Positions 7,557 to 46,463 of a stretch of DNA of 46,463 nucleotides are shown in pieces. Every line of letters begins with the position of its first letter. The first letter of the stretch is position 1. The notes under the pieces were generated by a model that saw only the letters and a list, made by a program, of their open reading frames with translations, did not search any database and was not told where the DNA came from. Source of the DNA: Candidatus Poribacteria bacterium (GTDB lineage: Bacteria > Poribacteria > WGA-4E > PCPOR2b); the NCBI GenBank assembly GCA_047517405.1, contig JAKZSX010000302.1:1-46463 (forward strand). Direction: 5' to 3'. The position numbers and the translations under genes are program-made.

Positions 7557-7599
7557 CGCACCGTGTATGTTTTGGATTCATCAACTCCATTTCAACAGA

Positions 7600-7634
7600 G
7601 GCGTTTGGGATATCCTTCCCAGACGCCTTTTTTT
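7600..7634 (+). terminator. Rho-independent terminator
   Basis: An 11-bp stem GGCGTTTGGGA / TCCCAGACGCC (one G:U pair), a 6-nt loop, then T7 (7628-7634). Confidence 0.8.
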
Positions 7635-7709
7635 ATTTTAGAAATATCTCTCAGCAAGTATAAATTAAGCAAGGAATTCCTTTTAGATTAGAGCAAAACA
7701 CGAAAAAAG

Positions 7710-8324
7710 ATGCAAAATACCCCAATTTCCAGTAGATCACAACCACGAAAAAATTACCGGCAATCCAAACGTCCAGATCAACACCGGCAATCTCCACACT
7801 ATAACAAACTAGTCCGTCGTCAGCTATCTCCAAAGCTGCTAACCCAAATTCGCGCCGAAAGCCATGGGCGCGCTTACGTTCAAAAGCAGATTCGAAGGAA
7901 AACGCCGATGGTTTTTGATCTTCACGGGGAACATATTGAAGGTATCATCAGTCGCCGCTTAACCTATATCCTTGTCGTCCTAGTCGATGGACAGCTGCAC
8001 CATCTTGAAAAACTCAACATCAAGTATATGTACAAACAAGACGAAGCGTCTCTAATTGTTCCGGATATTGAGGTGGATGCAGATTTAAAAGCACAAAACT
8101 TGGTCTCCATTGCTCACAAATCTGAGCGATTCGAAGTTGACGACCGTGTGCTTGCACGTTGCCGCAAGGAAAAAATTCCAGTGCGTTTAACCCTTAGAGG
8201 CGGGGAGATAATCACAGGGGTTATTAGTTGGTTCAGTCAGTATGAGATGAAGATGCTTCTAGCTCATGGAGGCAACGTTGTTGTATTCCGGCACGGATTA
8301 CATAGTTTTGAAATAAGCTCGTGA
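7710..8324 (+). CDS. Tandem Sm/Hfq-like domain protein with basic N-terminal tail
   Basis: Two segments fit the Hfq Sm1/Sm2 pattern. The first is 'PMVFDLHGEHIEGIISRRLTYILVVLVDGQLHHLEKLNIKYMY'. The second is 'PVRLTLRGGEIITGVISWFSQYEMKMLLAHGGNVVVFRHGLHSF' (compare Hfq '[25 protein letters not shown]...MVYKHAISTV'). There is no strong SD at 7710. An alternative start at Met67 (AGGA 8 nt upstream) would remove the basic tail. Confidence 0.55.
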   Translation: MQNTPISSRSQPRKNYRQSKRPDQHRQSPHYNKLVRRQLSPKLLTQIRAESHGRAYVQKQIRRKTPMVFDLHGEHIEGIISRRLTYILVVLVDGQLHHLEKLNIKYMYKQDEASLIVPDIEVDADLKAQNLVSIAHKSERFEVDDRVLARCRKEKIPVRLTLRGGEIITGVISWFSQYEMKMLLAHGGNVVVFRHGLHSFEISS

Positions 8325-21235: not shown

Positions 21236-23155
21236 TCACCACCGCTTAAATGCGTAGGTAGGTATACCAGTCACCAATCCGACGATCCCCCAGAGGCTAC
21301 CTATCGTAAACGCGCCCAAGACTAGCCCCAGAAAGAATGGGAACGACCGACGATACATCTGTATCCCGCCGTGCCTGAGAATTGCTCCCTTTACTACCCA
21401 ACTGATAAGAAACGGGAACCACAGGTGTTCAAAGGGTATATACCCCGTTATCGGATAAGCTAGCGGATGCAGGGGCCACCATAAGAACCGTAGCCGCATT
21501 ACCGTGTTGATAAACACAACCGAAGCGCCAATGCCGACAGCACTAAGCGATTGCGGATCCGGTTCTAGTGGACGTACAAGCCACCGCTCAATCACCGTAT
21601 AGGCACCAATACCGCGTCCTTCACTGATACCGCCCCATTTGTAGCTGAATTGCAAAAACGTCCAGAAGGTTATGATGATACCCACGATAACGGAGAGCAT
21701 AATGACTTTCCCAAGTTTGCGGGTATCCATACCCGACCGGTCTGCCAGTTTGAAACTTTCAAGCATATACGGCATCGGATGATTTCTGAACTGTTTCGTG
21801 AACGTCCAAAACGGGGCTGCTGCCGTCAATGTCTGACTTTCGAGTTTACGGCTGCCTACCATCGCTATAAAGAGTTGGAGCGGACCGTAGTGGAAAATCC
21901 CGTGAATCGGGGGACCAAGCTCCGCTCGTGTTCGTGTGTGTGCAAACGCAATGACAAAGTAAACACTGAAGAACGCCAATCCAAACTGAACCGTCGTTCC
22001 TGCTTGATATGAGAAGAACACTAGGAAGCTGATTCCCGCGATTATCCCAAGCACCGCCGTTCTGTACTTCATCGGTTCCCCAGAATCGTCCACCTCCGAT
22101 CTTGCCCCGACAGCTCTTTTTATTACCTGCCAAATCGGTTTCCGTCCCAGCCAGAAGGAGACGATAGCGATTCCCAGATATCCACCAAGGACCTGCTGCG
22201 CAACAAATGGATATCCGGGCATGTTAATCCCTGCCATACTGCCTACGACTCGCTGTGCTTTCCAAAGCAGAAAAAAGAACCAGCACGAAAAGAGGAGATC
22301 GAGCGGAATGGCGAAAGCAAGACCAATAGCGAAGGGATTAAACTGGACAGGGAAGTTGCCCATCGCGTTGAGGGGACGCTCTGTAAAATACACGTTCAGA
22401 TTGTATCCAAGGGGAATCTGGGGAAGCACGGGGTACAGGAAAGTTGTCCCATTAATCAGGTTGATACCAGCGGCTAACCCAAAACCCAGCCAGAGCAGCT
22501 TGTTTCTGAAAAACGGGTGATGTCCGTTGCTCTCACGGCTCATCTCATAAGGCAGGTGAACGAGTGGATAGGTCAATTTCTCCTTCTCAATCCACTGTCT
22601 CCTGATGATGATGCTCAGGCAGAACATCGTAAACGCAACCACCGAGAGAAAAAGCGTCCACCACACCATCGGTTCAAGCCAACCTTTGATGTGAGCTGCG
22701 GTGTAAAATGTCGATTCTCCTTTGTAAAATCCATAAAGTACATGATCGTCATTTACGGTAAGTCGTTGCGATAGATACTTCCAAAAGAGGTTGCTCCAAT
22801 CGTTCTCCGGCGTCGCAGACCAACGAGCGGTGCCTAGCGTGCAAAATATGGATTGGCTAAAATCGTGACCGCTGACACAGACCGCCAAGAGAAGCATTGT
22901 ATAAACGGTCAGCAGCTCCTGCTGGCTCAATGCAATCCGCGGCAACCATCGTTTCAGCAGCATGTTTACCAGGATCAAGGACAGGAAGGTGAAAACCGCG
23001 TTATAAAAGATCGTCATTGTGGTCGGGTACTGAGTATTCCAGACTGTTTCCCACTGCACGACGATGTAGACGTTGATTGGTACAAGTGCTAAGCCGATGA
23101 GCACCGCTCGTAAGGTAACGTCGCCTTTGCTATCATTTTTCGTCGGATGCGCCAT
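21236..23155 (-). CDS. Large polytopic membrane protein of unknown function (about 14 or more TM helices; possibly the DUF6785/DUF6784 type)
   Basis: About 640 aa, dominated by hydrophobic helices rich in W/F/Y. I recognise no transporter signature. The track ORF starts at TTG 23200. ATG 23155 has GAGGA 5 nt upstream. Confidence 0.8.
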   Translation of the reverse strand: MAHPTKNDSKGDVTLRAVLIGLALVPINVYIVVQWETVWNTQYPTTMTIFYNAVFTFLSLILVNMLLKRWLPRIALSQQELLTVYTMLLLAVCVSGHDFSQSIFCTLGTARWSATPENDWSNLFWKYLSQRLTVNDDHVLYGFYKGESTFYTAAHIKGWLEPMVWWTLFLSVVAFTMFCLSIIIRRQWIEKEKLTYPLVHLPYEMSRESNGHHPFFRNKLLWLGFGLAAGINLINGTTFLYPVLPQIPLGYNLNVYFTERPLNAMGNFPVQFNPFAIGLAFAIPLDLLFSCWFFFLLWKAQRVVGSMAGINMPGYPFVAQQVLGGYLGIAIVSFWLGRKPIWQVIKRAVGARSEVDDSGEPMKYRTAVLGIIAGISFLVFFSYQAGTTVQFGLAFFSVYFVIAFAHTRTRAELGPPIHGIFHYGPLQLFIAMVGSRKLESQTLTAAAPFWTFTKQFRNHPMPYMLESFKLADRSGMDTRKLGKVIMLSVIVGIIITFWTFLQFSYKWGGISEGRGIGAYTVIERWLVRPLEPDPQSLSAVGIGASVVFINTVMRLRFLWWPLHPLAYPITGYIPFEHLWFPFLISWVVKGAILRHGGIQMYRRSFPFFLGLVLGAFTIGSLWGIVGLVTGIPTYAFKRW

Positions 23156-23231
23156 GCTTTCCTCAATCCCGTGAACAGTCCGAAATCCAGCGAGAGCCAA
23201 ACCCCAGAATCCACTTGTCTCCGGCTACGCT

Positions 23232-23548: not shown

Positions 23549-24535
23549 ATGAACAACATGAGCAATTTTAGGGTTATCGATTTATTTGCTGGAATTGGTG
23601 GTATGCGTATTCCGTTTGAAAGGTTGGGTGGAGAGTGCGTTTTCAGTTCGGAATGGGACGAACATGCCCAGCGTACCTATTATCACAACTTCGGGGAAAT
23701 GCCAAAAGGAGACATCACCAAAATTGATGAACGGGATATTCCAGACCACGATGTCTTGCTTGCGGGTTTTCCTTGTCAACCGTTTAGCATCATAGGTGAG
23801 AAACAAGGTTTTGCAGACACGCGAGGAACGTTGTTTTTTGACATAGAACGGATTCTTGCAGAAAAAAAACCGGGTGCGTTTCTTCTTGAAAATGTGAAGC
23901 AACTTACCTCCCACGACAGAGGAAGAACCTTCGCCGTGATTCAATCTCGCCTTCTCAATCTTGGGTACACCATTTACCACGAAATTCTAAATGCTCTTGA
24001 TTTCGGCTTGCCCCAAAAGAGAGAACGGGTATTTATCGTTGGATTTCGCGAACCAATAGCTTTCGCTTTTCCTAGAGGAAACGGGGAGTATAAGTCTCTC
24101 TCAGGGATTCTTGAACCAGATGACAGGGTAGACCCTAGCTTATTTGCGTCGGAGAAAATTCGAAAATCTCGTCTTGAAAAATGCAAGGTGAATCCGTTTT
24201 ATCCCTCTATCTGGCATGAGAATAAAGGAGGGAATATATCGGTGTTGCCTTTTTCATGCGCTTTACGGGCAGGAGCATCTTATAACTATCTTTTGGTAAA
24301 CGGCACTAGGCGACCATCAGGGCAAGAGCTATTGCGTTTACAGGGTTTTCCAGAAGATTTTAAGATTGTTGTAAACACTGCGCAGCTTCGGAAACAGACA
24401 GGGAACAGCGTTGCTATTCCTGTTGTTACCGCAATAGCAAGAAAAATGTTGGCAGCACTCAAGGAACAAGAACCGGTGTGGCAGGCGATCGAGCAACTTA
24501 CCCTTTTTGAAAAAAAATCAAGGACTTATGCTTAA
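23549..24535 (+). CDS. DNA (cytosine-5)-methyltransferase, type II R-M
   Basis: All canonical C5-MTase motifs are present: I 'DLFAGIGG', IV 'GFPCQPFS', VI 'ENVKQL', VIII 'QKRERVFIVGF', X 'GNSVAIPV'. A second ATG at 23558 is better spaced from GAGGA. Confidence 0.95.
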   Translation: MNNMSNFRVIDLFAGIGGMRIPFERLGGECVFSSEWDEHAQRTYYHNFGEMPKGDITKIDERDIPDHDVLLAGFPCQPFSIIGEKQGFADTRGTLFFDIERILAEKKPGAFLLENVKQLTSHDRGRTFAVIQSRLLNLGYTIYHEILNALDFGLPQKRERVFIVGFREPIAFAFPRGNGEYKSLSGILEPDDRVDPSLFASEKIRKSRLEKCKVNPFYPSIWHENKGGNISVLPFSCALRAGASYNYLLVNGTRRPSGQELLRLQGFPEDFKIVVNTAQLRKQTGNSVAIPVVTAIARKMLAALKEQEPVWQAIEQLTLFEKKSRTYA

Positions 24536-25593
24536 TGGATAGCCGAACCGCTAAAAAACACTTGGACACTGTTATCAAAAAAGCCCGCATTCACCTTTAT
24601 AAACCTATACAGATTGCAGAAATACTCTACAGAGATAGAACAGTAGGTGACATAGACCTTGATGATTTGGAGACTTATCGAACATTCTCAAGACAATGGC
24701 GAGACAAAGTTTGTAGAAAGTTTCTGGGAAGAACCTCGACTTCAAGCGCACGATTCCAAGACAATCTTTTTGAGGCAAACGCGACACCCCCGCCCATCCT
24801 GAGGACATTAGGAGAGATAAATCATAGACATAAGGGTGCGGTAGAAGCCTACATTTATGAGGCTTTTAGGCAGCGACACGCTCAAATGTTGAGTGGACTG
24901 GCTTTGGTAAGCCGGTCGGACAAAACCAATTTTGTTTTGAAGAATTTTATTGCAGTCTTCAGCCGTGACCCTGGGTTGAAGCGAAGCGTTGATAAAATAT
25001 TTGAGATTGTGGTTTATGCTTTATTTTCAACGCTTTTGGAAGCCCTTGACATAAAAATCGGTATTAGGGTTGGGAATATTGAAAATACAATTTTTCGAGA
25101 GTTTTCGGACTTCACGGAAAAAGTCCTTGGTTTGAATGAAGAAACACCAGAGGCTTATCACACAGCGAAGGTCTATAGGGCTGGCGTAACGAACGCGGCT
25201 GATAGAGGGCTTGACATGTGGGCAAACTTTGGCGTTGCTATTCAGATAAAGCATTTGTCCTTGACTCCCACAATGGCGGAGTATATTGCCAGCGATATAA
25301 CAGCAGACAGAATTATCATTGTTTGCAAGGAATGCGAGAAAGACGTTCTCGTTTCGGTGTTACAGCAATTCGGTAGTTCAGGTAGGATTCAAAGTGTGAT
25401 CACAGAAAATGAACTTGAAACATGGTATGAAAAAGCCTTGAGAGGACAATCAGCGGAACTAATCGGAGATAAAGTGTTGCAAAGACTAGAGAACGAAATC
25501 AAGGTTGAATTTCCTTCAACTACCGAATTTGATGAGTTTTTTACGGATCGAGGCTACCACCAACTGTCGGTTGATGATATTTGGCTTTCTTGA
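24535..25593 (+). CDS. Type II restriction endonuclease partner of the C5-methyltransferase (family uncertain; possibly HaeII-like)
   Basis: The start overlaps the MTase stop by 1 nt (TAATG), and both genes share a lower-GC composition. The 352-aa size is typical of such enzymes. The family assignment comes from context and weak recollection only. Confidence 0.6.
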   Translation: MDSRTAKKHLDTVIKKARIHLYKPIQIAEILYRDRTVGDIDLDDLETYRTFSRQWRDKVCRKFLGRTSTSSARFQDNLFEANATPPPILRTLGEINHRHKGAVEAYIYEAFRQRHAQMLSGLALVSRSDKTNFVLKNFIAVFSRDPGLKRSVDKIFEIVVYALFSTLLEALDIKIGIRVGNIENTIFREFSDFTEKVLGLNEETPEAYHTAKVYRAGVTNAADRGLDMWANFGVAIQIKHLSLTPTMAEYIASDITADRIIIVCKECEKDVLVSVLQQFGSSGRIQSVITENELETWYEKALRGQSAELIGDKVLQRLENEIKVEFPSTTEFDEFFTDRGYHQLSVDDIWLS

Positions 25594-26688: not shown

Positions 26689-28971
26689 ATGAGAAGACAG
26701 CATCACAGTAACAATCAACAAAACATGAGGATACTTCTATGCCTGCTTTTCTTGATACAGATCTGTATTCTCACTCCCCTAGCAACTTTCGCCCAAACGC
26801 CGCCCATTAAAGAAGACCGAACCGCTATTCAAAGTGCCCACGATTTCTACTATTCCCAAGAATATTCAGAGGCGGTTGAAGCGTATCAGGCTCTCTTAAA
26901 AACGCCGCTACACCAACACTCGAAAGATGCAATCCGTATGAATTTAGGGCAGTCCTACGCCAAACTTGGAGATGATGCTTTGGCACTCCAAAATTTCCAC
27001 GCTGTAATCGATGATGATCCCAACGGTTCCTATGCGAGCCAAGCAGTGCATCGAATTGGAACACTTTTTCGCGAGCGGTATCAGTACAAAGAGGCAATTA
27101 ACCGATGCCGACAGCTCGCTAACAAATATCCGAAAACGCAAACCGCAGCAATCGCACGTTATCTCATTGCCCAATATACTTTCGCAGAAGGGAGATATGA
27201 TGAGGCAATTGAAAATTATCGCAGCTTCCTAAATGATTTTTCGACCTCTCCATACCGTACTAGTGCGATCAATAGCCTTGTTCGGCTATACCGAATTCGC
27301 CATAAATATACTGACGCCGAGAATTTAATCCGGGATGAAATTCGCCGAAAACCGGATGATATCAACCTGATGGAACAGTTGGCGGACCTCTATAAAGCGC
27401 AAGGGAAATACGATGAGGCGTTATCCCTATACCATACTGCCCTTGACCAAAATCCGAAAAATACAGATATTCTGAAGAAACTTGGAGAGCTATACGCGGA
27501 GCGTGGTCAGCAAGATCTTGCAGCAGAGCAGTGGGCGAAGATTGTCCAAGATGATCCGGATCAAGCCTATCGATACCAACAACTGGGGTCAATATACACA
27601 TCTCACCAGATGTATGAAAGGGCTGTCGAAGCCTATGAAACAGCCATCGGTCTCAGTCCCAAATCTGCTCAGCTCTATAACCTGCTTGCAGATGTCTACA
27701 AAATTCAAGGACAGATTGGTATGGCGGTTAATACTTATCTGCGAGCATTGAGTGTGGTGGATATTGGCTACAGTGGACGCGATACGCTTGTCCAAAGTAT
27801 GGCGGAGATCTATGAAGGAGCTCAACTGGAACGTCTGTTTGAGGGGGTAATTGAAAAGCTCCAAGCGATGCTGAAAACGGATTCTCGAAATTCGAGTCTC
27901 GTTCTATCTTTGGCAGAGGTCTATTTCTACGGTGGGAATTTAGATCTGGCTCTCAAAAATTTTAAGCGGCTGCACCAGCTTTACTCCGCCGACCGTGGAC
28001 GCATCCTCGAAAAGTATGCACAAATTCTGGAGCGGAACAAAAATCCTAAAGCGGCAGATTTTTATCAGGCAATTGCTGAGCTCTTTCCAAATATGCATCT
28101 GGCTTGGACTGCACAGATGAAATTGGTACGATTCTATGAACGGTCGGGGCGATGGAACGATGCGTTGAAGGTTTTGACCAATATGACACAGCGGAGCTAC
28201 CAACCCGCTGCACAACTGCTCTTGGGGCATGTGTGGTTACGTGGCATACGCGATGCGGAGGCTGCACTACAAATATATCAAAACTTAGCCAACCAACCAC
28301 TGCCGACCGATCAAGCAACACAGGTTCAACTCGGTATGGCGACGTGTTACATCTTGCAGGGAAAATCTGACGCGGCAGAAAGTGCGCTTCGTCCGATCGC
28401 TGATGGGAATAGCAATTTCAAGGCGGAAGCCCAAAAACTAATCGGAGATGCACATCTGCTTCGGGGAGATATTGAAGCGGCGGTTACGGCATACAAGCGT
28501 GTGCTTGATATTGCGATGTCCAATCCGTTGAGCAATGACTCCCTAGACAGAATCGTCCTAGTCCAGTCCAACTCGGACTACAGCAACGAACCCCTCAAAC
28601 GTTACCTCGAAGCACTCCGAAGCGATTTGAGCGGAGAGACCGATGTAGCATTAAAGCTTTGCCAAGAAACGATGCAGGAATATCCGACAGCACTCATCGT
28701 TGATGATCTCTGGATGCTGGTCGGTAAAATTCATCAGCGTGGGACGCGATACCTCGACGCTATCACGGCATATCAGCAAGTTGCCGTCTTGGAGGGGAGC
28801 CCAATCGCAGCGGAGGCAGCAGCGAAAATCGCAGACATCTACCGTTGGCAACTCAATGAGCCCGACAAAGCACGGGAGACCTATTCCGCGCTCATTCAAG
28901 ATTATCCTGAGAGTGTGATTGTCGCCTACGCCCGACAGCAGCTTGATGCACTTGCGAAGGAGAGAAAGTGA
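26689..28971 (+). CDS. Secreted TPR repeat protein (760 aa)
   Basis: Signal peptide (LLCLLFLIQICILTPLATFAQ), then many TPR units (for example 'LADLYKAQGKYDEALSLYHTALDQNPKN'). GGAG RBS. Confidence 0.88.
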   Translation: MRRQHHSNNQQNMRILLCLLFLIQICILTPLATFAQTPPIKEDRTAIQSAHDFYYSQEYSEAVEAYQALLKTPLHQHSKDAIRMNLGQSYAKLGDDALALQNFHAVIDDDPNGSYASQAVHRIGTLFRERYQYKEAINRCRQLANKYPKTQTAAIARYLIAQYTFAEGRYDEAIENYRSFLNDFSTSPYRTSAINSLVRLYRIRHKYTDAENLIRDEIRRKPDDINLMEQLADLYKAQGKYDEALSLYHTALDQNPKNTDILKKLGELYAERGQQDLAAEQWAKIVQDDPDQAYRYQQLGSIYTSHQMYERAVEAYETAIGLSPKSAQLYNLLADVYKIQGQIGMAVNTYLRALSVVDIGYSGRDTLVQSMAEIYEGAQLERLFEGVIEKLQAMLKTDSRNSSLVLSLAEVYFYGGNLDLALKNFKRLHQLYSADRGRILEKYAQILERNKNPKAADFYQAIAELFPNMHLAWTAQMKLVRFYERSGRWNDALKVLTNMTQRSYQPAAQLLLGHVWLRGIRDAEAALQIYQNLANQPLPTDQATQVQLGMATCYILQGKSDAAESALRPIADGNSNFKAEAQKLIGDAHLLRGDIEAAVTAYKRVLDIAMSNPLSNDSLDRIVLVQSNSDYSNEPLKRYLEALRSDLSGETDVALKLCQETMQEYPTALIVDDLWMLVGKIHQRGTRYLDAITAYQQVAVLEGSPIAAEAAAKIADIYRWQLNEPDKARETYSALIQDYPESVIVAYARQQLDALAKERK

Positions 28972-38035: not shown

Positions 38036-38641
38036 ATGCCAGATCTGGACCATGAATTGATGAAACAATGTCAACAAGGGAATATAGAGGCGTTTGATCT
38101 GATCGTGCGCCGAAATCAAGTGCCTCTAGTCAATTTTATCGCCCGGTTCTTAGGCGATCCGGACGCCGCTGAGGACTTGGCACAGGAGACATTTGTTCGT
38201 ATGTTCAAAGCAATCAAACGATACAAATCCGGAGTGGCAAAGTTCAGCACCTGGATGTATCATATTGCTTCCAATCTGTGCAAAAATGAACTGCGAAATC
38301 GGGGACGGCGGGGTCGGTTCTTCGTTGATAGTGTGGCCACCGAACCCTCCTCCGGTTCCGAATCAACTGAAGAGGATCTGATCGCGACCGCTCCCGCGCA
38401 TGTCTCCCTCCAACCCGGGAACCAACTTGAACGGAAAGAACGTGAACATGCTGTGCAAAGTGCGATTTCGGAACTCCCCGAGCGATATCGATTGCCGCTG
38501 ATTCTCCGGGACCTGCGAGAGCTGAGCTATGAGGAAATCAGTAACACCTTAGCTCTACCGCTCGGAACGACGAAATCGCGCATCAACCGCGCACGGCTCA
38601 TGTTAAAAGATAAATTGAGAAGTTTTGTGGAGTCATCATGA
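38036..38641 (+). CDS. ECF-type RNA polymerase sigma factor (RpoE-like)
   Basis: Region 2 ('AEDLAQETFVRMF', 'FSTWMYHIASNLCKNE') and region 4 ('LPERYRLPLILRDLRELSYEEISNTLALPLGTTKSRINRARLMLK'). GGAGG RBS. Confidence 0.92.
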   Translation: MPDLDHELMKQCQQGNIEAFDLIVRRNQVPLVNFIARFLGDPDAAEDLAQETFVRMFKAIKRYKSGVAKFSTWMYHIASNLCKNELRNRGRRGRFFVDSVATEPSSGSESTEEDLIATAPAHVSLQPGNQLERKEREHAVQSAISELPERYRLPLILRDLRELSYEEISNTLALPLGTTKSRINRARLMLKDKLRSFVESS

Positions 38642-39252
38642 ACTGCTTAAAAGCTGAAGAACAGTTTTCCGCGTATATAGAAGATGAATTAGATTATCAG
38701 GCGGTTAGGGCATTTGAAGACCATTTGAGTACCTGTCATGCGTGTCGTCGAGAGTTTACCCTATTCCGTGAATCACTCAATTTGCTGCATCAGTTGCCAC
38801 AGATTGAACCATCGAGGGAATTCGATATCGCCTTACAAGTCCGCCTTGCGGATACCCCGATCGAATCAATCCCGTTTTGGCAACGTGTGTTGCGTCCCTT
38901 ATACGGTCAAACCGGTTTGGCATTGAGTGGGATCACAGTGCTGCTTGTCATGATCGCAGGTGTTTATTTTTATCAAAAAACGCTGATCAAACCGCCGTCG
39001 GTTGAAATCGTTGCAGCACCAGAGCCGTCAAGGCGTGTACCGCTTGCTGAGGAGCGTAGGGTCGAATGGCAGGGGCAGCAACTTCCTTTAGCTATACCCA
39101 GCCGAGAGCTGCAGTCCCTAGTTAATTTCCCAGAATCGCCGACATTTAATCTGCAACCGCGGCGTAGAAGTCAACAACCACAACGGCTAGAACAGAACTA
39201 TATTTTGCAGACGGTTAACTACACAGAAGCCCCTACAGGTGGAGGCTTGTAA
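38638..39252 (+). CDS. Anti-sigma factor, zf-HC2 type, single-pass membrane protein
   Basis: 'HLSTCHACRREF' zinc-finger motif and a central TM helix (LALSGITVLLVMIAGVYFY). The start overlaps the sigma stop (ATGA). Confidence 0.8.
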   Translation: MNCLKAEEQFSAYIEDELDYQAVRAFEDHLSTCHACRREFTLFRESLNLLHQLPQIEPSREFDIALQVRLADTPIESIPFWQRVLRPLYGQTGLALSGITVLLVMIAGVYFYQKTLIKPPSVEIVAAPEPSRRVPLAEERRVEWQGQQLPLAIPSRELQSLVNFPESPTFNLQPRRRSQQPQRLEQNYILQTVNYTEAPTGGGL

Positions 39253-39253
39253 A

Positions 39254-40441
39254 ATGTCCAAAACAATTCAGATACAAAATAAGAGATGCAACGCGCCTGT
39301 CAACGGCTACTCAATTCACCTCTATCATAAGTCACTCGTCCTCGCTATCGCGTTGTTTTTAACTTGTCTCCGCTCTACGATTGCCGAAGAAAGTGTGCTA
39401 CAATCCATGGAGCGTGAGTTTCAGGCCATAGTAAAATCTGTGCAACCATCTGTCGTTGAGGTTGTAGCAACGTGCACAGTTACCGCCCAAAAAATTTCAG
39501 GGAGACAGGGAGCATCGCTAGCTGACGATTCAGAGACAGTCTTCTGCTACCAGAACATCGGATCCGGCATTATCATTGATTCCGCCGGACACATTGTAAC
39601 TACCGCAGGGGTCGTTGAAAATGCAGATGGAATTGAAGTCGTATTTGCAAATGGGGACCGCACACCGGGAACACTCCTCGGCGTTGATGCCCTAACGGAT
39701 ATCGCTGTCCTCTCTGTTGAGAGCGATAATCTGCCCCAGACGAGAATTGGCGACTCTAATCAGATCGATACGGGAGCGTGGGTCATCACCGTCGCTAGCT
39801 CTTATGGACATTCTCCAACGATCTCCTTTGGGACGGTCAGCGGCTTAGAGATTTTACCCACACGACCATTTTACGATGCAATCCGAATCAATGCCTCTGT
39901 CAATCCGGGCAATAGTGGAGGTGCTGTTGTCAATACGTCAGGGGAGATCGTTGGTGTCATCGCAGCGAAGCTGGAAGATCCGTATCTCAAACAGATATCG
40001 CATCTGCTCGATTTAACGTTTCCAGAATTGTCCCAAGGACAAGCCGCGGTGTTAAGAGCCGGAATCCCTCTCGGACCGGCCTGGACCAGAAGCGAAATAG
40101 GCTTTGCCATTCCAATTAACACAGTCAAACATATCGCCGAACAACTGACTCAATACGGTAAAGTCCCTCGCGGTTGGCTTGGAGTTCGGCTTGAACAGGA
40201 ACGTGAACGAACCACTGCTGTTGGGGTCCGTGTTACAGAAGTTTCACAAGGTAGCCCTGCTCATAAGTCCGGCATCAAACACCAAGACGTTATCGTTGAA
40301 TTTAAAGGGAAACCTGTTCGTACATTCCTTGAACTCAAAAAACGGGTTGCAAGTTCCCCACCCAATACTCGTGCTGCCATTAAAATTTACCGAGATGGAC
40401 AATTCCTTCTGCGCGAAGTCGTGCTTGGAAACAGAGAGTAG
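39254..40441 (+). CDS. HtrA/DegP/DegS-like trypsin-fold serine protease with one PDZ domain
   Basis: Catalytic 'NPGNSGGAVVN', His/Asp regions ('GSGIIIDSAGHIVTTAGV', 'DALTDIAVL'), and PDZ 'GVRVTEVSQGSPAHKSGIKHQDVIVEFKGKPV'. ATG 39254 (GGAGG 8 nt upstream) is preferred over 39239. Confidence 0.9.
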   Translation: MSKTIQIQNKRCNAPVNGYSIHLYHKSLVLAIALFLTCLRSTIAEESVLQSMEREFQAIVKSVQPSVVEVVATCTVTAQKISGRQGASLADDSETVFCYQNIGSGIIIDSAGHIVTTAGVVENADGIEVVFANGDRTPGTLLGVDALTDIAVLSVESDNLPQTRIGDSNQIDTGAWVITVASSYGHSPTISFGTVSGLEILPTRPFYDAIRINASVNPGNSGGAVVNTSGEIVGVIAAKLEDPYLKQISHLLDLTFPELSQGQAAVLRAGIPLGPAWTRSEIGFAIPINTVKHIAEQLTQYGKVPRGWLGVRLEQERERTTAVGVRVTEVSQGSPAHKSGIKHQDVIVEFKGKPVRTFLELKKRVASSPPNTRAAIKIYRDGQFLLREVVLGNRE

Positions 40442-40549
40442 CAGATTTTCCTTACGTCGTTTCTTGTGCATCTCATTGGTCGCTCGACAACCTTTCAATT
40501 TCCCGCCACCGTTTGATCTTCCTTCTGTTTTATCACTGCATAAATCTCT

Positions 40550-40578
40550 TTGACAATTTTTCAATAATCTGTTATAAT
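40550..40578 (+). promoter_or_regulatory. Consensus sigma70 promoter driving the cobalamin riboswitch leader
   Basis: TTGACA (40550-40555), exactly 17 nt, TATAAT (40573-40578). Both hexamers are perfect. Confidence 0.7.
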
Positions 40579-40630
40579 CAGTAACGCTTCAAACAGAATC
40601 AAAGAAACATTTTAAAACTGCATATTTGTT

Positions 40631-40805
40631 GATTCAGGTGCCGGCAATCAATGAAAATTGCCGGAGAATAGGGAAGCGCGGTGAAAATCCGCCACGGCCC
40701 CGCCACTGTAAAACGACGCAAAACCGTGTCCAAAAAGCCACTATCCCAAATCAGGATGGGAAGGCGGACAATGTGTTGTCGTAAGCCAGGAGACCTACCT
40801 GAATC
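40631..40805 (+). promoter_or_regulatory. Cobalamin (AdoCbl/B12) riboswitch aptamer
   Basis: P1 is GATTCAGGT (40631-40639) / ACCTGAATC (40797-40805). Conserved core elements are 'GGTGCC', 'AATAGGGAAGCGCGGTGAAAATCCGCCACGGCCCCGCCACTGTAA', 'GCCACT...GGGAAGGCG', and the B12 box 'AAGCCAGGAGACCTACC'. Confidence 0.93.
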
Positions 40806-40904
40806 TGATTTCACAGGGTAGCTTTCGCGGGAAGGCTGTGAAACGGGGTTCTTTGCCGATTCATCGTGCTTGAGGATATTATTAGGTGTGAATGGCCAAC
40901 CATA

Positions 40905-40938
40905 CCCCAGCTTTCAGCGTGAAAGCTGGGGTTTTTTT
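40905..40938 (+). terminator. Intrinsic terminator, the likely expression platform of the cobalamin riboswitch
   Basis: An 11-bp perfect stem CCCCAGCTTTC (40905-40915) / GAAAGCTGGGG (40921-40931), a 5-nt loop, then T7 (40932-40938). It lies between the aptamer and the first gene's RBS. Confidence 0.85.
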
Positions 40939-41001
40939 ATTTTTAGGTTGTAAAACCTACAGCTGACACCACTATATCATTGATGAAAGGAAGGTTCAGT
41001 T

Positions 41002-42279
41002 ATGATACGCAGGTTCACATTCACATCTGTACTCACAATTTTAATTTTTGCCGTCCTGAGTGTTTACGCCCAAGAAGACGTGCAAAATCTAGCAATCGTC
41101 GCCAACACTTTGCGGAAACCAGAAGCCGGTATTTCCCCGTCGCTCTCAATTGTCAATCTTGATGAGCCTAATCTCAGAAAGGCGGTCGAGAATGAGATTA
41201 TTCCACTTGGGTTGGTCATACCAAGCGATTTGGAGGTTCAAGGGAATCTCCTCTACGCTCTCAACCAAGAACCAGACCCATTTTTTGATCCGCGCGGTGG
41301 GTCTATCGAAATTATCAATCTGTTGACCCGCTCAAATGTCGGAAGTATCCCAATTGATGCCGATACCACGCCAAAGCAGATTGCCCTTATCCCTCCCTCC
41401 AAAGCATATGTTACCGGCCTATACGGCAATGCAATCCATGTGGTAGATCTGAACCAGAAAAGCGTTGTTAAGCGCATCCCTTGCGGTCCAATGCCCGATG
41501 GAATAACTATTCTTAACGGAAAGGCTTATGTCGCCAATTCGGCGTATGTTAAGGAGCCTGGCACCTGGAACGTCAGCTATGATGATAAGAGCAACGTCAC
41601 AATCATTGATATAGAGACCGACACAGTCTTAAAAACCATACCGATGCCAATAAACACAAACGGTATTGTAAGCGATGGTGAATCTAGGGTGATCGCGGTG
41701 TCAGCCGGTGTTGGCGAGTGGATCGTCCCCGGCGGCATCCCAGGAACCGTTGTGTTTATCGACGCAGTTACCGACGAAATCGAAAAAACAATCGAACTCG
41801 AAGGTAGAGCGGGGGGACCTGATATTGACAGCATGAAGCGCGTCTTTGTCAGTTCAGGTGGATTGCTCGTATACGATCTGTTCAGCGAACAATGGACACA
41901 CGATGCTGACAATCCATTCACAGATTTGGGCGGCGTGGGGGCAATCGATCAGAATGATAACCTCTATATCACAAGGGCGGATTGGACAGGTGGCAGAATG
42001 GACGAGCTATATGTAGTTGCCTCCGATGGGACGCTGCTTAATACCTACGGCATTGGTCCGGGAGGCTCTCTTGTTACTGTTGCACAGGTCCAATCGATAG
42101 GAGTTGTGGCTGCCAATGTGAACCACGATGGGGTGGTCAATATCCTCGATCTGGTTATCGTTGCGAGCAACTTTGGACAAACAGGTGCAAATCTCCAGGG
42201 CGATGTCAATCGGGATGGAATTATTGACGTCTTCGATCTTGTTCGCATTGCGAAGTATTTCGGACAAAATGTCAACTGA
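41002..42279 (+). CDS. Secreted YVTN-type beta-propeller repeat protein with C-terminal dockerin-like domain
   Basis: Signal peptide (FTSVLTILIFAVLSVYAQ). Repeats such as 'AYVTGLYGNAIHVVDLNQKSVVKRIPCGPMPDGI' and 'NVTIIDIETDTVLKTIPMP'. The C-terminus has a duplicated Ca-binding dockerin motif 'NVNHDGVVNILDLVIVASNFGQ' / 'DVNRDGIIDVFDLVRIAKYFGQ'. AAGGAAGG RBS. Confidence 0.85.
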   Translation: MIRRFTFTSVLTILIFAVLSVYAQEDVQNLAIVANTLRKPEAGISPSLSIVNLDEPNLRKAVENEIIPLGLVIPSDLEVQGNLLYALNQEPDPFFDPRGGSIEIINLLTRSNVGSIPIDADTTPKQIALIPPSKAYVTGLYGNAIHVVDLNQKSVVKRIPCGPMPDGITILNGKAYVANSAYVKEPGTWNVSYDDKSNVTIIDIETDTVLKTIPMPINTNGIVSDGESRVIAVSAGVGEWIVPGGIPGTVVFIDAVTDEIEKTIELEGRAGGPDIDSMKRVFVSSGGLLVYDLFSEQWTHDADNPFTDLGGVGAIDQNDNLYITRADWTGGRMDELYVVASDGTLLNTYGIGPGGSLVTVAQVQSIGVVAANVNHDGVVNILDLVIVASNFGQTGANLQGDVNRDGIIDVFDLVRIAKYFGQNVN

Positions 42280-42297
42280 TGGAGATGTACAAAACGT

Positions 42298-42325
42298 GTA
42301 GGGAACGTAGGTCTACGTTCCCTAC
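42298..42325. repeat. Perfect 13-nt-arm palindrome in the intergenic spacer of the riboswitch-controlled operon
   Basis: GTAGGGAACGTAG-gt-CTACGTTCCCTAC. There is no T-run afterwards, so it is not a canonical terminator. Confidence 0.8.
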
Positions 42326-42378
42326 AAAAGTTTACTTCCCGGATCACTTAACCTTTAATCCCTATCCTTCGAGGCACC

Positions 42379-44373
42379 TTGAATCCTCATATCTGTTACG
42401 TCCCACGCCTGCTATTCTTGTCCTGCTGCCTCCTTTATCTCGCTTGTACGCCGAAAACCGGTGAACAATCCCCGATTTCATGGGGAGTCACCTTTTTTCC
42501 GCTCGGTGCAAAAATTGAATTTGACGCTGCGGTTCGGGAGAATGTCCAGAAAGTCACCGCACTTGATTCGGAAGGCAGGTTAGCGGCTCAACTCGATCTC
42601 GGAGGGTATTCGCGCGGTACCGAATCGCTATACTTTCGATGGGAAAAGGGGGATGCTTATCGGTTTGAAGTAATGTTCCAGAACGGTGAATCAGCAGCCC
42701 AAACGGTGCAGGCACCCCAGACCGATCCGCGAGGGACGATTGAGATTGCCATCCCTTACGGCACGATCGAGGTGGAGAAGACCGCTGATGCTAGTGTTGG
42801 TACGCAACCGGCGCCATCTCAGAAGGCATCACTAGTCTTACAAGGTATCGAGATGACCGCAACCGTGCTAATCCGAAATGGTTTGGAGGCACCTGTCAAC
42901 TTTGACGTTGTGCTTCAGGTGCCGGCATCATTTCAGGTGTTGCCGCACCGCCCAGTATGGGATAGTAAGGTGAAGGGAGTTGCTCTGAATCCTGGTGTAA
43001 TCGGAGAAGATATCCTCTCCTACCGCTCATCAGGAAAATTCACAGTCGAATCAGAGGTTTGGTACAGCCAATTGACCTTAAAAATGCCAGATGAACTGCT
43101 CCCCAGTGACACACAGATTCGTGGGCACGTTTTCTTTGAAAATGTGTTGGGAGATCGGTGGGAACGGAGTGTGACCACCCCATTGCGTTCCGCATCTCTC
43201 GATGAGATTGCAGGGCAACTCCGGATTGAGGGCATTACCATGCCGACAGGTCCAAGCGGTGTATCCGATCCGCGCCAACAACCGGACGCGATTTCCTCTC
43301 CGCGTTCCCTCTTGGGAGGATTCGGCAGATGGCTCGGTGCAAAAGCAGCCTCAATGGACCAGTTCGAACCTATCGCATATCAAACAGTGCACATCCACAA
43401 TGGAAGACAGGAGACTATTCACGCGATTGTGGCATCAATGAACCGCGATACAATGGACGGAGAGCCGGTTCCTTTCTTATCTCCCCCGGACGCGGTCAAC
43501 GCCGGCACGAATCGCAGCCTTGCCTTTGTCAGTTTGACGGGAGAAAGCACTACCCCCGTTCCCCTGCCAATCTATTTCAACCCACTGTCCGAATTATATC
43601 GGGATTTCACCGGGGCAGGGCGTTATGAGCGTGCAATCGAAGTGAAAATTTGGGGAAGTGACGCCACGGTTCTACGCGCCACACGACCCCTGCTGATTGT
43701 AACACCTAATTTCCACGCGATGCTTGTTACGGGCATTGTGCTCGTTGTGACAGGACTGGGGATTGCATTGCTACTCTGCTTTCACCAACAACTATTTAGC
43801 TGCTTTTCAACCAAGCAGCTGATCCTTATCTCTCTGTTTGGCACAACGATATTCATTGCCGTCAACGTCCCATCAACCCTGCTGACCAACCTGATCTCTG
43901 CGTTACTCGGTCCCATCTCATCTCTGGTCACCGGCCTCATCAATGAGATGCTATACTACGCCTTGCTGACATCGCTGCTGGTCCTCCTCCCCAAATTCGG
44001 GGTAATCGCCCTAGTTTCCGCGGTCCGGCTCCTGCTGGGAGGCGTCACGCTAGGGTTGCTCACGCCCACTATACTGCTTCACGTTGTAACCGCTGTACTG
44101 CTGCTCGAAGTCGGTTTCCAGATAGCCCGGAAAATTACTTTGGATTCCGGTGCAATTGGAGGCGCGAATCTGCTGATCTTAGCATTCATATTTGGCTTAT
44201 GTGACGCGCTAACTGTCTACGTTGAATTCCAACTGAGCATGACGCTCTACCGTCTGTTCTACGCAGATTGGTATATTCTGACGCGAATCTTAGTCGATGG
44301 TTTTACTTATACATTTATCGGCGTCCTTCTGGGAAAGCGATTAGGTGCGGGGTTGTGGCGGGTTGCAGAATGA
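42379..44373 (+). CDS. Fusion protein of unknown family: lipobox signal, ~430-aa extracytoplasmic domain, and a C-terminal polytopic (~7 TM) membrane domain
   Basis: TTG start with GAGG 4 nt upstream. N-terminal 'LLFLSCCLLYLAC' has a lipobox. A long soluble region follows. From about residue 440 there are consecutive hydrophobic helices ('MLVTGIVLVVTGLGIALLLCF', 'LILISLFGTTIFIAVNV', 'LLTSLLVLLPKFGVIALVSAV', 'ILLHVVTAVLLLEVGF', 'LLILAFIFGLCDALTVYV', 'ILVDGFTYTFIGVLLG'). Confidence 0.8.
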   Translation: MNPHICYVPRLLFLSCCLLYLACTPKTGEQSPISWGVTFFPLGAKIEFDAAVRENVQKVTALDSEGRLAAQLDLGGYSRGTESLYFRWEKGDAYRFEVMFQNGESAAQTVQAPQTDPRGTIEIAIPYGTIEVEKTADASVGTQPAPSQKASLVLQGIEMTATVLIRNGLEAPVNFDVVLQVPASFQVLPHRPVWDSKVKGVALNPGVIGEDILSYRSSGKFTVESEVWYSQLTLKMPDELLPSDTQIRGHVFFENVLGDRWERSVTTPLRSASLDEIAGQLRIEGITMPTGPSGVSDPRQQPDAISSPRSLLGGFGRWLGAKAASMDQFEPIAYQTVHIHNGRQETIHAIVASMNRDTMDGEPVPFLSPPDAVNAGTNRSLAFVSLTGESTTPVPLPIYFNPLSELYRDFTGAGRYERAIEVKIWGSDATVLRATRPLLIVTPNFHAMLVTGIVLVVTGLGIALLLCFHQQLFSCFSTKQLILISLFGTTIFIAVNVPSTLLTNLISALLGPISSLVTGLINEMLYYALLTSLLVLLPKFGVIALVSAVRLLLGGVTLGLLTPTILLHVVTAVLLLEVGFQIARKITLDSGAIGGANLLILAFIFGLCDALTVYVEFQLSMTLYRLFYADWYILTRILVDGFTYTFIGVLLGKRLGAGLWRVAE

Positions 44374-44445
44374 TATCGGGATTTGCTCGATTCCCTCAAT
44401 CGAAACCTCCTTATCGAGAGGAGAATAACCCATGAAAAAGGCTTT

Positions 44446-44473
44446 TTGACTTACCTAATAGTATGGTTAATAT
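44446..44473 (+). promoter_or_regulatory. Candidate sigma70 promoter ahead of the structured leader of the 44821 gene
   Basis: TTGACT (44446-44451), 16-nt spacer, TAATAT (44468-44473). Confidence 0.3.
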
Positions 44474-44516
44474 TTCTATTTTTTCTTGCGAAGCTTACTT
44501 TTCTTGTGCAGTAGTA

Positions 44517-44678
44517 CGTAGGTTGGGTTGAACGAGTCAAACCGAATTGGTATCAATGCCGATAGCGGTTCAGTTTTTCAACAACACTGTATTTGTGAGA
44601 TTTCACGCTGAATGGAGCGTCGTAGTCAAAGAGGAGCGACTTGGTATGTTTTGTGAGTACCGTTCAACCCAACCTACG
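44517..44678. repeat. 162-nt element bounded by a perfect 18-bp inverted repeat (structured RNA or MITE-like element)
   Basis: CGTAGGTTGGGTTGAACG (44517-44534) is the exact reverse complement of CGTTCAACCCAACCTACG (44661-44678). The arms are separated by 126 nt. The element lies in a 447-nt ORF-free spacer. Confidence 0.85.
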
Positions 44679-44820
44679 GTCTGTCTGGTTACGGCATACA
44701 GAGTATACCTACTACTAGTAACTTAGGTTATTTTTATCTGCGAAAATCAGCGAAATCTGCATCCGTATCTACTTTTAGAACTGAAGCACGAAAGTCCTAA
44801 CACTTTTTTGGAGGTCCTGC

Positions 44821-46463
44821 ATGAAAACACAAAATTTACGATGGAGCATATTTCTTGGTCTACTGATTTACCTTTTCGTTCCAACTCACACAGTAGCGAA
44901 GCCCCTTAAAGGGACTGTTATCTTTACACGGGGTGGTATTGTCATTGAACTGGAAGAACGTCTCAAGAGGACCAATCAACCGGATAGATTACACCCTCTA
45001 CCAAGTTTAGTTATACACGAGGCATCCAAACCTCTGGAGGAAATTTTCCCTGCTTGGATCGATGACCAACGCGCCCTCGCAACGTATGATTGGAAACCTC
45101 AAACGCATTACCACATCGCGTTCCCATGGACTGATGGCAGTCTATTTGAGATAAGCACTACTGCGCCGCTCAAACCCCTCCCTTATCGTATCCGTACCGT
45201 CGAATTAGAATACTCATTGTCGCTGCTGGCGAACCTGCAACGTCCAGCAAAACCGACGACGATTACCTTTTCCCCCGATGGTGAACAACTCGCGATTGGA
45301 ACAAATGCCGGACATCTCGCAATCATCAACCCACTCACGGGGGATCGAATCTGGAAGACACACATCTCCGAAGGTTACGCCAAACACGCAGCCTTCAGTT
45401 CAGATGGAAAGCGTTTCTACATCGGCGAGCAATCCGCTGACGGTTTCATCTATGCCTACGACCTATCAGCCACAAAACCCACACTGTTATGGAGATATCG
45501 CATGGCAGATGACATTGACACCTCAACCTCACAGAATCCGGACGATGTGTACGCATGGGTGCAGTATCCGGGACCCTATCGGATCTCGACAACGGAGGGA
45601 GGAGATCTGCTTGTGGTCGGAAATCACTCGTGGACAAAGGATGGCGTAGGCTTAAAAAAGGCGCAACTCTACCGTTTCGATGGAGAAACAGGAACGCTCA
45701 AATGGAAATGGCCTCCCAATCAGACCCTTCCAATGACCATCAGCTGGTTCGATTATAGCCGTGACGCGAAAACAGTCGCACTGCTCACTTATATAAGGGG
45801 CAGTGGGGAGGCAGGGGGTTTCAAATCCGGCACGTTGTACGTCATCAACGGTGAGACGGGCGAAGCAGCATGGGAATATACCTTCGACCCGCTCAAGCCA
45901 TATTTCGAGGAAGTGACGTTCTGGCGCGGCGTGAGTGCCGCACCCGATGGTGGGTTCATCGATGTCACAACAGATGACGGGCGGGCATTCATTTTCAATA
46001 CGACGCCGGAGCCAGAAGGAATTAAGCCGCTGTGGAATACAAACCTCACAACACCGCTTGAAGTCAGCGGCATCCCAATTATCGCTACCAACGGAACAAT
46101 TGGTGCCACCAACGACTTCGCGCTCTTTGTTACGGGCGACACTTTTATCCCATATCACTTGCAGCAAGGCGCGCAACGGCCACCCTCCGCCCACCCAAAT
46201 GGGATGACCCTCTTTGCTTACGCATGGTCAGGAGAGAAGGTGTGGCAGTGGACGTTGGAAAGTATGCCGCAGGGTTTGCAAGTTGATGGGACCGGACGGT
46301 ATGCCGTTGTCAGCGTGTCCAAGCGCGGAGGAAACGTTGAGGAGCAGTTTCACGGCGTCTCTGTCTTTGATCTCACCGCGAAGGGAGGCGGTCTTTCTAA
46401 GTATCTCTACACTTATCGCACAGAGGGACAGCTCCCCTACGATACCATCAGCATCAGCGCGGA
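44821..46463 (+). CDS. Secreted beta-propeller-like (WD40/PQQ-like repeat) protein, 3'-partial; absent from the supplied ORF track
   Basis: ATG 44821 has GGAGG 6 nt upstream. I translated 547 codons by hand with no stop up to the window end. Signal peptide (WSIFLGLLIYLFVPTHTVA). Repeats such as 'ITFSPDGEQLAIGTNAGHLAIINPLTGDRIWK' and 'AAFSSDGKRFYIGEQSADGFIYAYDL'. Confidence 0.8.
   Translation, partial: MKTQNLRWSIFLGLLIYLFVPTHTVAKPLKGTVIFTRGGIVIELEERLKRTNQPDRLHPLPSLVIHEASKPLEEIFPAWIDDQRALATYDWKPQTHYHIAFPWTDGSLFEISTTAPLKPLPYRIRTVELEYSLSLLANLQRPAKPTTITFSPDGEQLAIGTNAGHLAIINPLTGDRIWKTHISEGYAKHAAFSSDGKRFYIGEQSADGFIYAYDLSATKPTLLWRYRMADDIDTSTSQNPDDVYAWVQYPGPYRISTTEGGDLLVVGNHSWTKDGVGLKKAQLYRFDGETGTLKWKWPPNQTLPMTISWFDYSRDAKTVALLTYIRGSGEAGGFKSGTLYVINGETGEAAWEYTFDPLKPYFEEVTFWRGVSAAPDGGFIDVTTDDGRAFIFNTTPEPEGIKPLWNTNLTTPLEVSGIPIIATNGTIGATNDFALFVTGDTFIPYHLQQGAQRPPSAHPNGMTLFAYAWSGEKVWQWTLESMPQGLQVDGTGRYAVVSVSKRGGNVEEQFHGVSVFDLTAKGGGLSKYLYTYRTEGQLPYDTISISA

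Follow-up and report, generated by a model that had tools for sequence, protein, structure and literature searches.

We identified a three-gene operon behind a cobalamin riboswitch in Candidatus Poribacteria, which probably serves to scavenge and import corrinoids and is predicted to be repressed by vitamin B12. The operon was found in GenBank assembly GCA_047517405.1 on contig JAKZSX010000302.1, of which positions 1 to 46,463 were analyzed (46,463 nucleotides, nt; hereafter the window). It consists of three open reading frames (ORF1, ORF2 and ORF3), all encoding exported proteins and all located on the + strand. A first-pass annotation of the window had proposed that these proteins form an undescribed corrinoid capture and import module without any recognisable B12 gene. 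Capture and import is still the best reading, but the module does not lie outside the known B12 transport families, as its parts are of known kinds: a cobalamin riboswitch, a beta-propeller of the BtuG type and an S-component of the energy-coupling factor (ECF) type. Two features appear to be undescribed, namely a family of S-components that are fused to an ectodomain and have a propeller partner of their own, and a dockerin-anchored relative of BtuG outside the Bacteroidota.

The 5' leader of the operon contains all elements of a riboswitch-controlled transcription unit. A sigma-70-type promoter (TTGACA-17-TATAAT with an extended -10 TG) is located at 40550-40578 on the + strand; it matches the consensus at 12 of 12 positions, as had been noted before, and is the only perfect site within 40000-46463. 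A scan of the whole window with Rfam covariance models gave a single match, the cobalamin riboswitch aptamer RF00174 at 40619-40816 on the + strand (116.2 bits, gathering score 31.5 bits; E 1.4e-28). The match is full length (model positions 1-189 of 189) and encloses the interval 40631-40805 in which the first-pass annotation had recognised a cobalamin aptamer. The promoter lies 41 nt upstream of the aptamer and an intrinsic terminator 88 nt downstream, and the start codon of ORF1 follows about 60 nt past the terminator. The terminator (40904-40939, + strand) consists of a hairpin at 40904-40932 followed by T7; both hairpin and T7 had been seen earlier (at 40905-40938), but the stem, which closes a 3-nt loop, is 13 bp and not 11 bp long. 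This hairpin is the dominant helix of the minimum-free-energy fold of 40800-40945 (-55.5 kcal/mol, z = -5.2). The expression-platform linker between aptamer and terminator (40817-40903, + strand) shows a P13-like hairpin at about 40809-40845 and a candidate anti-terminator strand, UGAAACGGGGU, at about 40841-40851. When the region was folded without the 5' strand of the P13-like hairpin and with the terminator 3' arm absent, UGAAACGGGGU paired with ACCCCAGCUUUCA, which is the 5' arm of the terminator (-23.6 kcal/mol). Judged by its sequence, the leader RNA is a genuine cobalamin riboswitch, and the computed alternative folds suggest a switch that is OFF at high B12.

ORF1 (41002-42279), ORF2 (42379-44373) and ORF3 (44821-46463, cut by the window end) follow 3' of the terminator. 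The earlier description of the three gene products as a signal-peptide propeller with dockerin, an ectodomain protein with transmembrane (TM) helices and a second signal-peptide propeller held up. The end of the operon was placed after ORF3, because in locus L085, where more of this genome is covered, the genes past ORF3 are convergent with it.

To determine how far this arrangement is conserved, one genome per GTDB species was scanned with ORF2. This yielded 148 relatives, of which the best 80 loci were used as the Poribacteria set; these are titled Poribacteria, a few being labelled 'uncultured bacterium', and their ORF2 identities range from 44 to 94%. Where the source of an ORF2 homologue is named, it is Candidatus Poribacteria. 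In ten loci spanning the 44-94% identity range, Rfam detected RF00174 upstream on the same strand in nine (95-114 bits). An nhmmer profile made from the Rfam-found aptamers placed a same-strand riboswitch upstream of ORF2 in 74 of the 80 loci; in at least two of the six negative loci the upstream DNA is too short to tell. ORF1 is present in 74/80 and an ORF3-type propeller in 78/80 loci, and nearly all of the 74 riboswitch-bearing loci also have both ORF1 and ORF3. The gene order is riboswitch, ORF1, ORF2, ORF3; in L020-L022 the riboswitch lies immediately 5' of ORF2. A terminator-like hairpin (-10 kcal/mol or lower) followed by T5 was found 97-181 nt past the aptamer in 46 of the 74 loci. The genes 5' of the riboswitch vary among loci (tRNA and signal recognition particle RNA genes in L032), indicating that the riboswitch belongs to the ORF1-3 operon. 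The association of the riboswitch with ORF1-3 is far beyond chance, and the three genes and the riboswitch are one conserved unit across Poribacteria.

Some loci deviate from this layout. L010 has an insert of about 4.3 kb between ORF1 and ORF2, so that its riboswitch is found 6 kb 5' of ORF2 (1-151, 344-1642 and 6001-7998). Neither ORF1 nor riboswitch was present in the fetched flanks of L012 and L013, possibly for the same reason, and L012 carries two ORF3 copies in tandem. In the window, the region directly 5' of the riboswitch promoter (38036-40441, same strand) is an operon encoding an extracytoplasmic function sigma factor (Sigma70_r2/r4), a zf-HC2 anti-sigma factor and an HtrA-like protease (Trypsin_2 and PDZ). 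Its position beside the riboswitch is not conserved at other loci, such as L032 with its tRNAs.

ORF1 encodes a secreted protein of 425 amino acids (aa) with a signal peptide (encoded at about 41002-41070) that ends in ...VYA/QED and contains no Cys. Scans with the single sequence gave weak matches to YVTN, PQQ_ABC_repeats and YncE-type propellers and, at the C-terminus, a match to Dockerin_1 (about 42103-42276) of 23.3 bits at a cutoff of 22.9; a homology search returned near-identical Poribacteria proteins only. A profile of 11 ORF1 orthologues (A7) was then searched against all PDB sequences. The lowest E-value was obtained for 1L0Q, the YVTN S-layer propeller of Methanosarcina (1.2e-21, in three repeat-level stretches), followed by BtuG1 (8BLW_B, 8PTD, 8PTF; E 3.5e-15), which was matched in a single 250-residue alignment (8BLW_B residues 89-339). 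The hydrazine synthase beta subunit 5C2V_B (E 5.6e-11) was matched over a single 100-residue stretch. BtuG3 (8PUJ, 8OKV, 8P97) followed at an E-value of about 8e-9, BtuG2 (8BAI, 8BAZ, 3DSM, 8BMX, 8BMY, 8BN0) at about 3e-7 and YncE of Escherichia coli at 1e-3. According to their deposition statements the 8BLW, 8PUJ and 8BAI groups are BtuG1, BtuG3 and BtuG2, respectively, and most of these structures contain cobalamin or cobinamide (PMC10404256; bioRxiv 10.1101/2024.02.16.580637). At the level of sequence profiles, then, the closest full-length solved relatives of ORF1 are the corrinoid binders BtuG1, BtuG3 and BtuG2. The first-pass annotation had named the BtuG family among those it did not recognise in the operon, so that its premise of no recognisable B12 family was wrong. 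In L016 (4132-5841) and L018 (3973-5832) the ORF1 orthologues carry an additional C-terminal extension of about 180 aa past the dockerin, which ends in a sequence resembling a sorting domain of the type IX secretion system (...FANYPNPFNPETW...VYFYQL...KMVILK).

Like BtuG of Bacteroides (8PTD, 8BLW, 8OKV, 8BAI, 3DSM), ORF1 is an exported YVTN/YncE-type propeller and, like btuG, it represents the first gene class of an uptake locus controlled by a cobalamin riboswitch. BtuG differs in having an N-terminal lipid anchor, in place of which ORF1 has an ordinary signal peptide together with a dockerin at the C-terminus, and in being encoded next to a BtuB-type TonB-dependent transporter, for which the ORF1 loci have no counterpart within 6 kb (0/80). 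Wexler et al. are said to have reported in 2018 that BtuG homologues occur in Bacteroidetes only, whereas ORF1 is found in Poribacteria.

ORF2 encodes a protein of 664 aa with a hydrophobic N-terminus or signal peptide, an ectodomain and seven TM helices. In an alignment of 18 homologues (A1), the N-terminal hydrophobic segment ends in Cys23, which is at least 90% conserved, and is followed by a beta-rich region of about 420 residues and a very highly conserved C-terminal membrane domain. The N-terminal part (42379-43707, + strand) thus comprises the signal peptide, Cys23 and an ectodomain of immunoglobulin (Ig)-like beta-sandwiches of about 420 aa, of which the membrane-proximal portion (profile positions about 270-440) is conserved throughout the family. 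An AlphaFold2 model of full-length ORF2 showed four to five beta-sandwich domains, with strands over residues 35-441, and seven helices. A Foldseek search with this model gave matches to Ig-like and FN3 folds only (integrin legs, RbmA), which say nothing about function.

The nature of the membrane domain was revealed solely by structure prediction on a TM-only alignment. The domain (residues 436-664) was modelled with AlphaFold2 on an alignment of 35 diverse sequences, giving a mean predicted local distance difference test score (pLDDT) of 93.3 and a predicted template modelling (TM) score of 0.89. The sole significant Foldseek match in the PDB was 5EDL, 'S-component of ECF transporter' (E 6.7e-3, probability 1.00, TM-scores 0.54/0.61, 197 of 197 target residues covered), the thiamine-binding YkoE of Bacillus subtilis. 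The earlier description of a domain of about seven TM helices was right in number, but these are a linker helix and a six-helix core of the ECF S-component type (43708-44373, + strand). The model fits a topology in which the ectodomain is outside, the linker helix runs inward and the six-helix core has both ends in the cytoplasm. Pfam and NCBIfam scans of ORF2 gave no match, and the only Pfam family recurring in the ORF2 family was PF09819, which was weakly matched by 5 of 35 members (best E 0.001). No PDB chain was found at E-values up to 10, either with the single ORF2 sequence (phmmer) or with the Poribacteria or diverse TM profiles, and chains of CbrT and BtuM were absent from the Foldseek top 50 of the membrane-domain model. 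A BtuM-like Cys was considered as a family feature and rejected: the TM5 Cys (FG-C-DA) is invariant in Poribacteria only and is Ala in most distant homologues, so that a BtuM-like Cys-cobalt ligand is no feature of the family.

ORF3 encodes an exported beta-propeller of the PQQ_2/BamB-like type with a signal peptide (PF13360, 38.6 bits); 547 aa are encoded in the window (+ strand), and the full protein has 576 aa (L085). An ORF3 profile gave generic WD40/BamB matches in the PDB, BtuG not being among them. Beyond generic propeller matches, neither ORF2 nor ORF3 belongs to a Pfam or NCBIfam family, and no source gives them a functional name. The 447-nt spacer between ORF2 and ORF3 contains an element resembling a miniature inverted-repeat transposable element (44517-44678), with perfect 18-nt terminal inverted repeats, CGTAGGTTGGGTTGAACG and CGTTCAACCCAACCTACG, that are 126 nt apart. 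In the sister strain L086, an insertion sequence with a DDE_Tnp_1 transposase occupies the same spacer. The spacer may be an insertion hotspot, and insertions there could uncouple ORF3 from the riboswitch.

An exhaustive profile search (E up to 1e-3) showed that the ORF2 family comprises at least 434 clusters at 50% identity, the alignment in most of them extending over the last beta domain and the membrane domain. Members were found in sponge symbionts, varied metagenomes, a metagenome-assembled genome of Euryarchaeota and the human gut genus Phascolarctobacterium. They are always annotated as 'hypothetical', and no Pfam or NCBIfam model exists for them; no description of the family was found in the literature on ECF, CobN, propeller and riboswitch systems and on CbrTUV. 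To analyze the gene context outside Poribacteria, metagenomes were scanned with the membrane-domain profile (291 relatives, 80 loci). Together with six distant loci that were looked up, this gave 78 loci without ORF1, which were mapped by tblastn.

Among the 70 loci with downstream DNA, 62 have a (double) ATP-binding cassette (ABC) ATPase or CbiQ gene within 400 nt 3' of the ORF2 homologue. Together with the S-component fold, these near-constant neighbours indicate that the ORF2 family is a transporter subunit. An ORF3-like propeller is present in 45, a TonB-dependent receptor in 38, a CobN-like gene in 15 and CbiZ, the adenosylcobinamide amidohydrolase of cobinamide salvage, in two of the 78 loci. 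In L081 and L083 a TonB-dependent receptor, a CobN-like protein, an ORF3-like propeller, the ORF2 homologue, a double ABC ATPase and CbiQ are encoded together (order varies), and in L088 the receptor, the ORF2 homologue, the double ABC ATPase and CbiQ. L087 has the ORF2 homologue, CbiQ and CbiZ with CobS nearby; its CbiZ is broken up into two neighbouring ORFs immediately 3' of CbiQ (3414-4108), which may be a frameshift or a pseudogene. In L160, of which the gene order including the ABC ATPase and CbiQ genes was confirmed by Pfam, the closest named relatives of the family member are 'hypothetical protein' entries of Phascolarctobacterium (including P. succinatutens). BLASTP aligned ORF3 with the propellers of the ECF operons in L083 (1e-36) and L081 (1e-42) over nearly the full length of the latter (430-480 aa). 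The partnership of ORF2 and ORF3 extends across phyla.

Cobalamin riboswitches also precede ORF2-family operons outside the Poribacteria set. Rfam detected RF00174 upstream of the operon in L083, L088, L093, L140 and the Phascolarctobacterium-like L160 group, and nhmmer alone found a cobalamin riboswitch upstream in L103 as well as in further Poribacteria-type metagenomic loci. L144, from a gut-metagenome lineage, belongs to the same series: here RF00174 is replaced by the adenosylcobalamin variant RF01482 (3775-3910, 54.3 bits; identical stretch in L146), which lies 5' of the TonB-dependent receptor of the ORF2-family operon. Of the metagenomic loci, 42 include 500 nt or more of DNA 5' of the inferred operon start; at least 18 of these had RF00174 or RF01482 within 700 nt upstream of that start, 13 of them, Phascolarctobacterium-like gut bacteria included, outside the Poribacteria-type arrangement and five Poribacteria-type. 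Riboswitch control of the family as a whole was not upheld, since 22 distant loci scanned with Rfam, several of which do not reach the operon 5' end, had no cobalamin riboswitch. The association of the ORF2 family with cobalamin riboswitches is recurrent and independent, not universal. L160 carries a second RF00174 (15909-16079, 88 bits) 3' of the ECF operon and past ABC exporter-type genes; another B12-related operon, lying outside the fetched DNA, is presumably under its control.

The S-component core (Foldseek probability 1.00, TM-scores 0.54-0.61) is common to ORF2 and the ECF vitamin transporters, and genes for a double ABC ATPase and CbiQ/EcfT lie beside the family genes, which is also the layout of group I ECF transporters. 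Control by a B12 riboswitch, predicted for CbrTUV-type systems, is likewise found for the ORF2 operon. S-components are normally proteins of about 20 kDa without an extracytoplasmic domain; ORF2, in contrast, has 664 aa with a signal peptide, the large Ig-like ectodomain and the extra linker helix, and it shows no sequence similarity to CbrT or another S-component in the PDB. The family further differs from ECF transporters in its dedicated propeller partner and, often, a TonB-dependent receptor. The solitary BtuM of Thiobacillus denitrificans resembles Poribacteria ORF2 in that no ECF ATPase or CbiQ gene is found within 6 kb of the latter, but BtuM has no counterpart of the large ectodomain and the two partner proteins. 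Domains of BtuB and BtuFCD (Plug, TonB_dep_Rec, FecCD permease, periplasmic binding protein) had no Pfam or NCBIfam match in ORF1-3.

Corrinoid capture and import is the best reading of the operon because the riboswitch appears genuine, the unit is conserved and ORF2 homologues stand behind riboswitches in unrelated lineages. At high cobalamin, the bound ligand would stabilise the aptamer together with the P13-like hairpin next to it; the 13-bp terminator would then form and end transcription 5' of ORF1. At low cobalamin, the terminator 5' arm would be taken up by UGAAACGGGGU, allowing read-through. ORF1, presumably a propeller of the seven-blade type that its dockerin, instead of a lipid anchor, would hold at the cell surface, would capture corrinoids, as its homology and context suggest. 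ORF3 and the Ig-like ectodomains of ORF2 may then take over the ligand at the cytoplasmic membrane, from where the S-component core would move it across. An ECF ATPase/CbiQ module with its genes at another site in the genome could drive translocation, or ORF2 could act alone like BtuM.

Several observations weigh against this reading. None of the 80 Poribacteria loci has CbiQ, an ECF ATPase, a TonB-dependent receptor or CobN within 6 kb, the sole exception being an unrelated-looking ABC ATPase match in L045; CbiZ is likewise absent within 6 kb (0/80). No riboswitch lies near the inferred operon start in at least 24 of the 42 distant loci, so that specificity for B12 may not extend to the whole ORF2 family. 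ORF1 belongs to the broad YVTN/YncE superfamily, in which 1L0Q outscores BtuG through repeat-level matches, and it lacks two hallmarks of BtuG, the lipid anchor and the BtuB partner. The sole contact residue that could be mapped confidently, Arg141 of BtuG1, aligns to Lys in ORF1 and to Gln or Glu in its orthologues. The model of full-length ORF2 is only moderately confident (pLDDT 65), and no sequence similarity of ORF2 to BtuM, CbrT or any other PDB chain was detected.

Three other explanations were considered. The operon could import cobalt or another metal for corrinoid synthesis through a CbiM/NikM-like S-component, the propellers and ectodomains being receptors for metals or metallophores. 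Control of cobalt transporters by cobalamin riboswitches is classic, PF09819, which alone among Pfam families was weakly matched, is named 'ABC-type cobalt transport system, permease component', and CobN-like chelatase genes neighbour the family at the 15 distant loci mentioned above. This explanation is nevertheless quite unlikely. The solved member of PF09819, 5EDL, is the thiamine-binding YkoE; 'cobalt' in the family name is historical. In place of the free N-terminus with which CbiM-type proteins bind metal, ORF2 has its 420-aa ectodomain. The full-length solved relatives closest to ORF1 bind corrinoids, and a ligand that is large and organic is suggested by the TonB-dependent receptors and CbiZ at related loci. 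It is very improbable that the three proteins have a role unconnected with B12 (for example in adhesion to surfaces, in binding of a matrix or in assembly of the envelope) and that the riboswitch merely couples them to B12 status, in the way of B12-independent isozymes. Such a role would fit the generic surface or scaffold character of dockerin, Ig-like and WD40/BamB-like domains and the envelope-stress operon directly upstream, yet the S-component fold and the almost invariable ABC ATPase/CbiQ neighbours mark a transporter subunit; the riboswitch travels with ORF1-3 and not with the variable upstream genes, and its association recurs in unrelated lineages.

The proteins could also capture or process corrinoids or other metallo-tetrapyrroles outside the cytoplasm (sequestration from competitors or the host, remodelling, or metal removal as by HmuS, a periplasmic CobN-like de-chelatase), with the S-component importing only the product. 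We regard this as unlikely. In its favour, CobN-like genes (1240-1324 aa) lie directly 5' of family members at several loci, in L083 behind a riboswitch, and HmuS is a precedent for CobN-like proteins acting as de-chelatases (PMC12583661). The lack of a riboswitch at about half of the distant loci suggests a wider substrate scope. A TonB-dependent receptor and a large CobN-like protein occur together at distant loci and likewise in the haem uptake operon hmuYRSTUV of Porphyromonas and Bacteroides, and equivalence with this operon, prompted by the CobN-like neighbours, was considered. It was ruled out, since hmu is not ECF-type, HmuT being an ATPase and HmuU a protein of the MotA/ExbB type (PMC12094164); hmu also differs in having no cobalamin riboswitch. 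The processing explanation is further weakened by the Poribacteria operon itself, which has no CobN-like gene within 6 kb, and repression at high B12 would most simply fit the acquisition of a cofactor.

Elsewhere in the window, a gene for a HaeII-type restriction endonuclease was found at 24535-25593 (PF09554, E 1e-133). An ORF of 328 aa in the region 23549-25593 ends at the start codon of this gene and may encode the cognate methylase. The - strand at 21236-23200 encodes a 653-aa protein consisting of DUF6785 (E 6e-156) and DUF6784 (4e-31), and two very large tetratricopeptide-repeat proteins of 1565 and 760 aa are encoded at 2859-7556 and 26689-28971, respectively.

Transporters for B12 and its precursors are still unresolved for many microbes, explicitly so for gut genomes (PMC6593275). 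With the orthologues in Phascolarctobacterium (P. succinatutens), the hypothesis might be put to the test in culture, provided that such strains are available. Tentatively, and with somewhat less confidence than we have in the function of the Poribacteria operon, the ORF2 family may be a new class of ECF-type importers in bacteria and archaea: an S-component with its own receptor domains, a dedicated propeller and, in diderms, a TonB-dependent receptor, which takes up corrinoids. Poribacteria may have shed the adjacent ATPase/CbiQ genes and recruited a dockerin-anchored, BtuG-like 'corrinophore', in which case ORF1 would be the first B12 binder of the BtuG type outside the Bacteroidota. If the ORF2 family does transport corrinoids, it would represent a third architecture for B12 uptake beside BtuBFCD (with BtuG/H) and ECF-CbrT/BtuM, and the textbook view of ECF S-components as proteins without extracytoplasmic binding domains would be challenged. 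For Poribacteria, which have been proposed to import B12 by a transporter that was not named (PMC5087111, PMC8546597), the operon would then be a concrete candidate for B12 import in the sponge holobiont.

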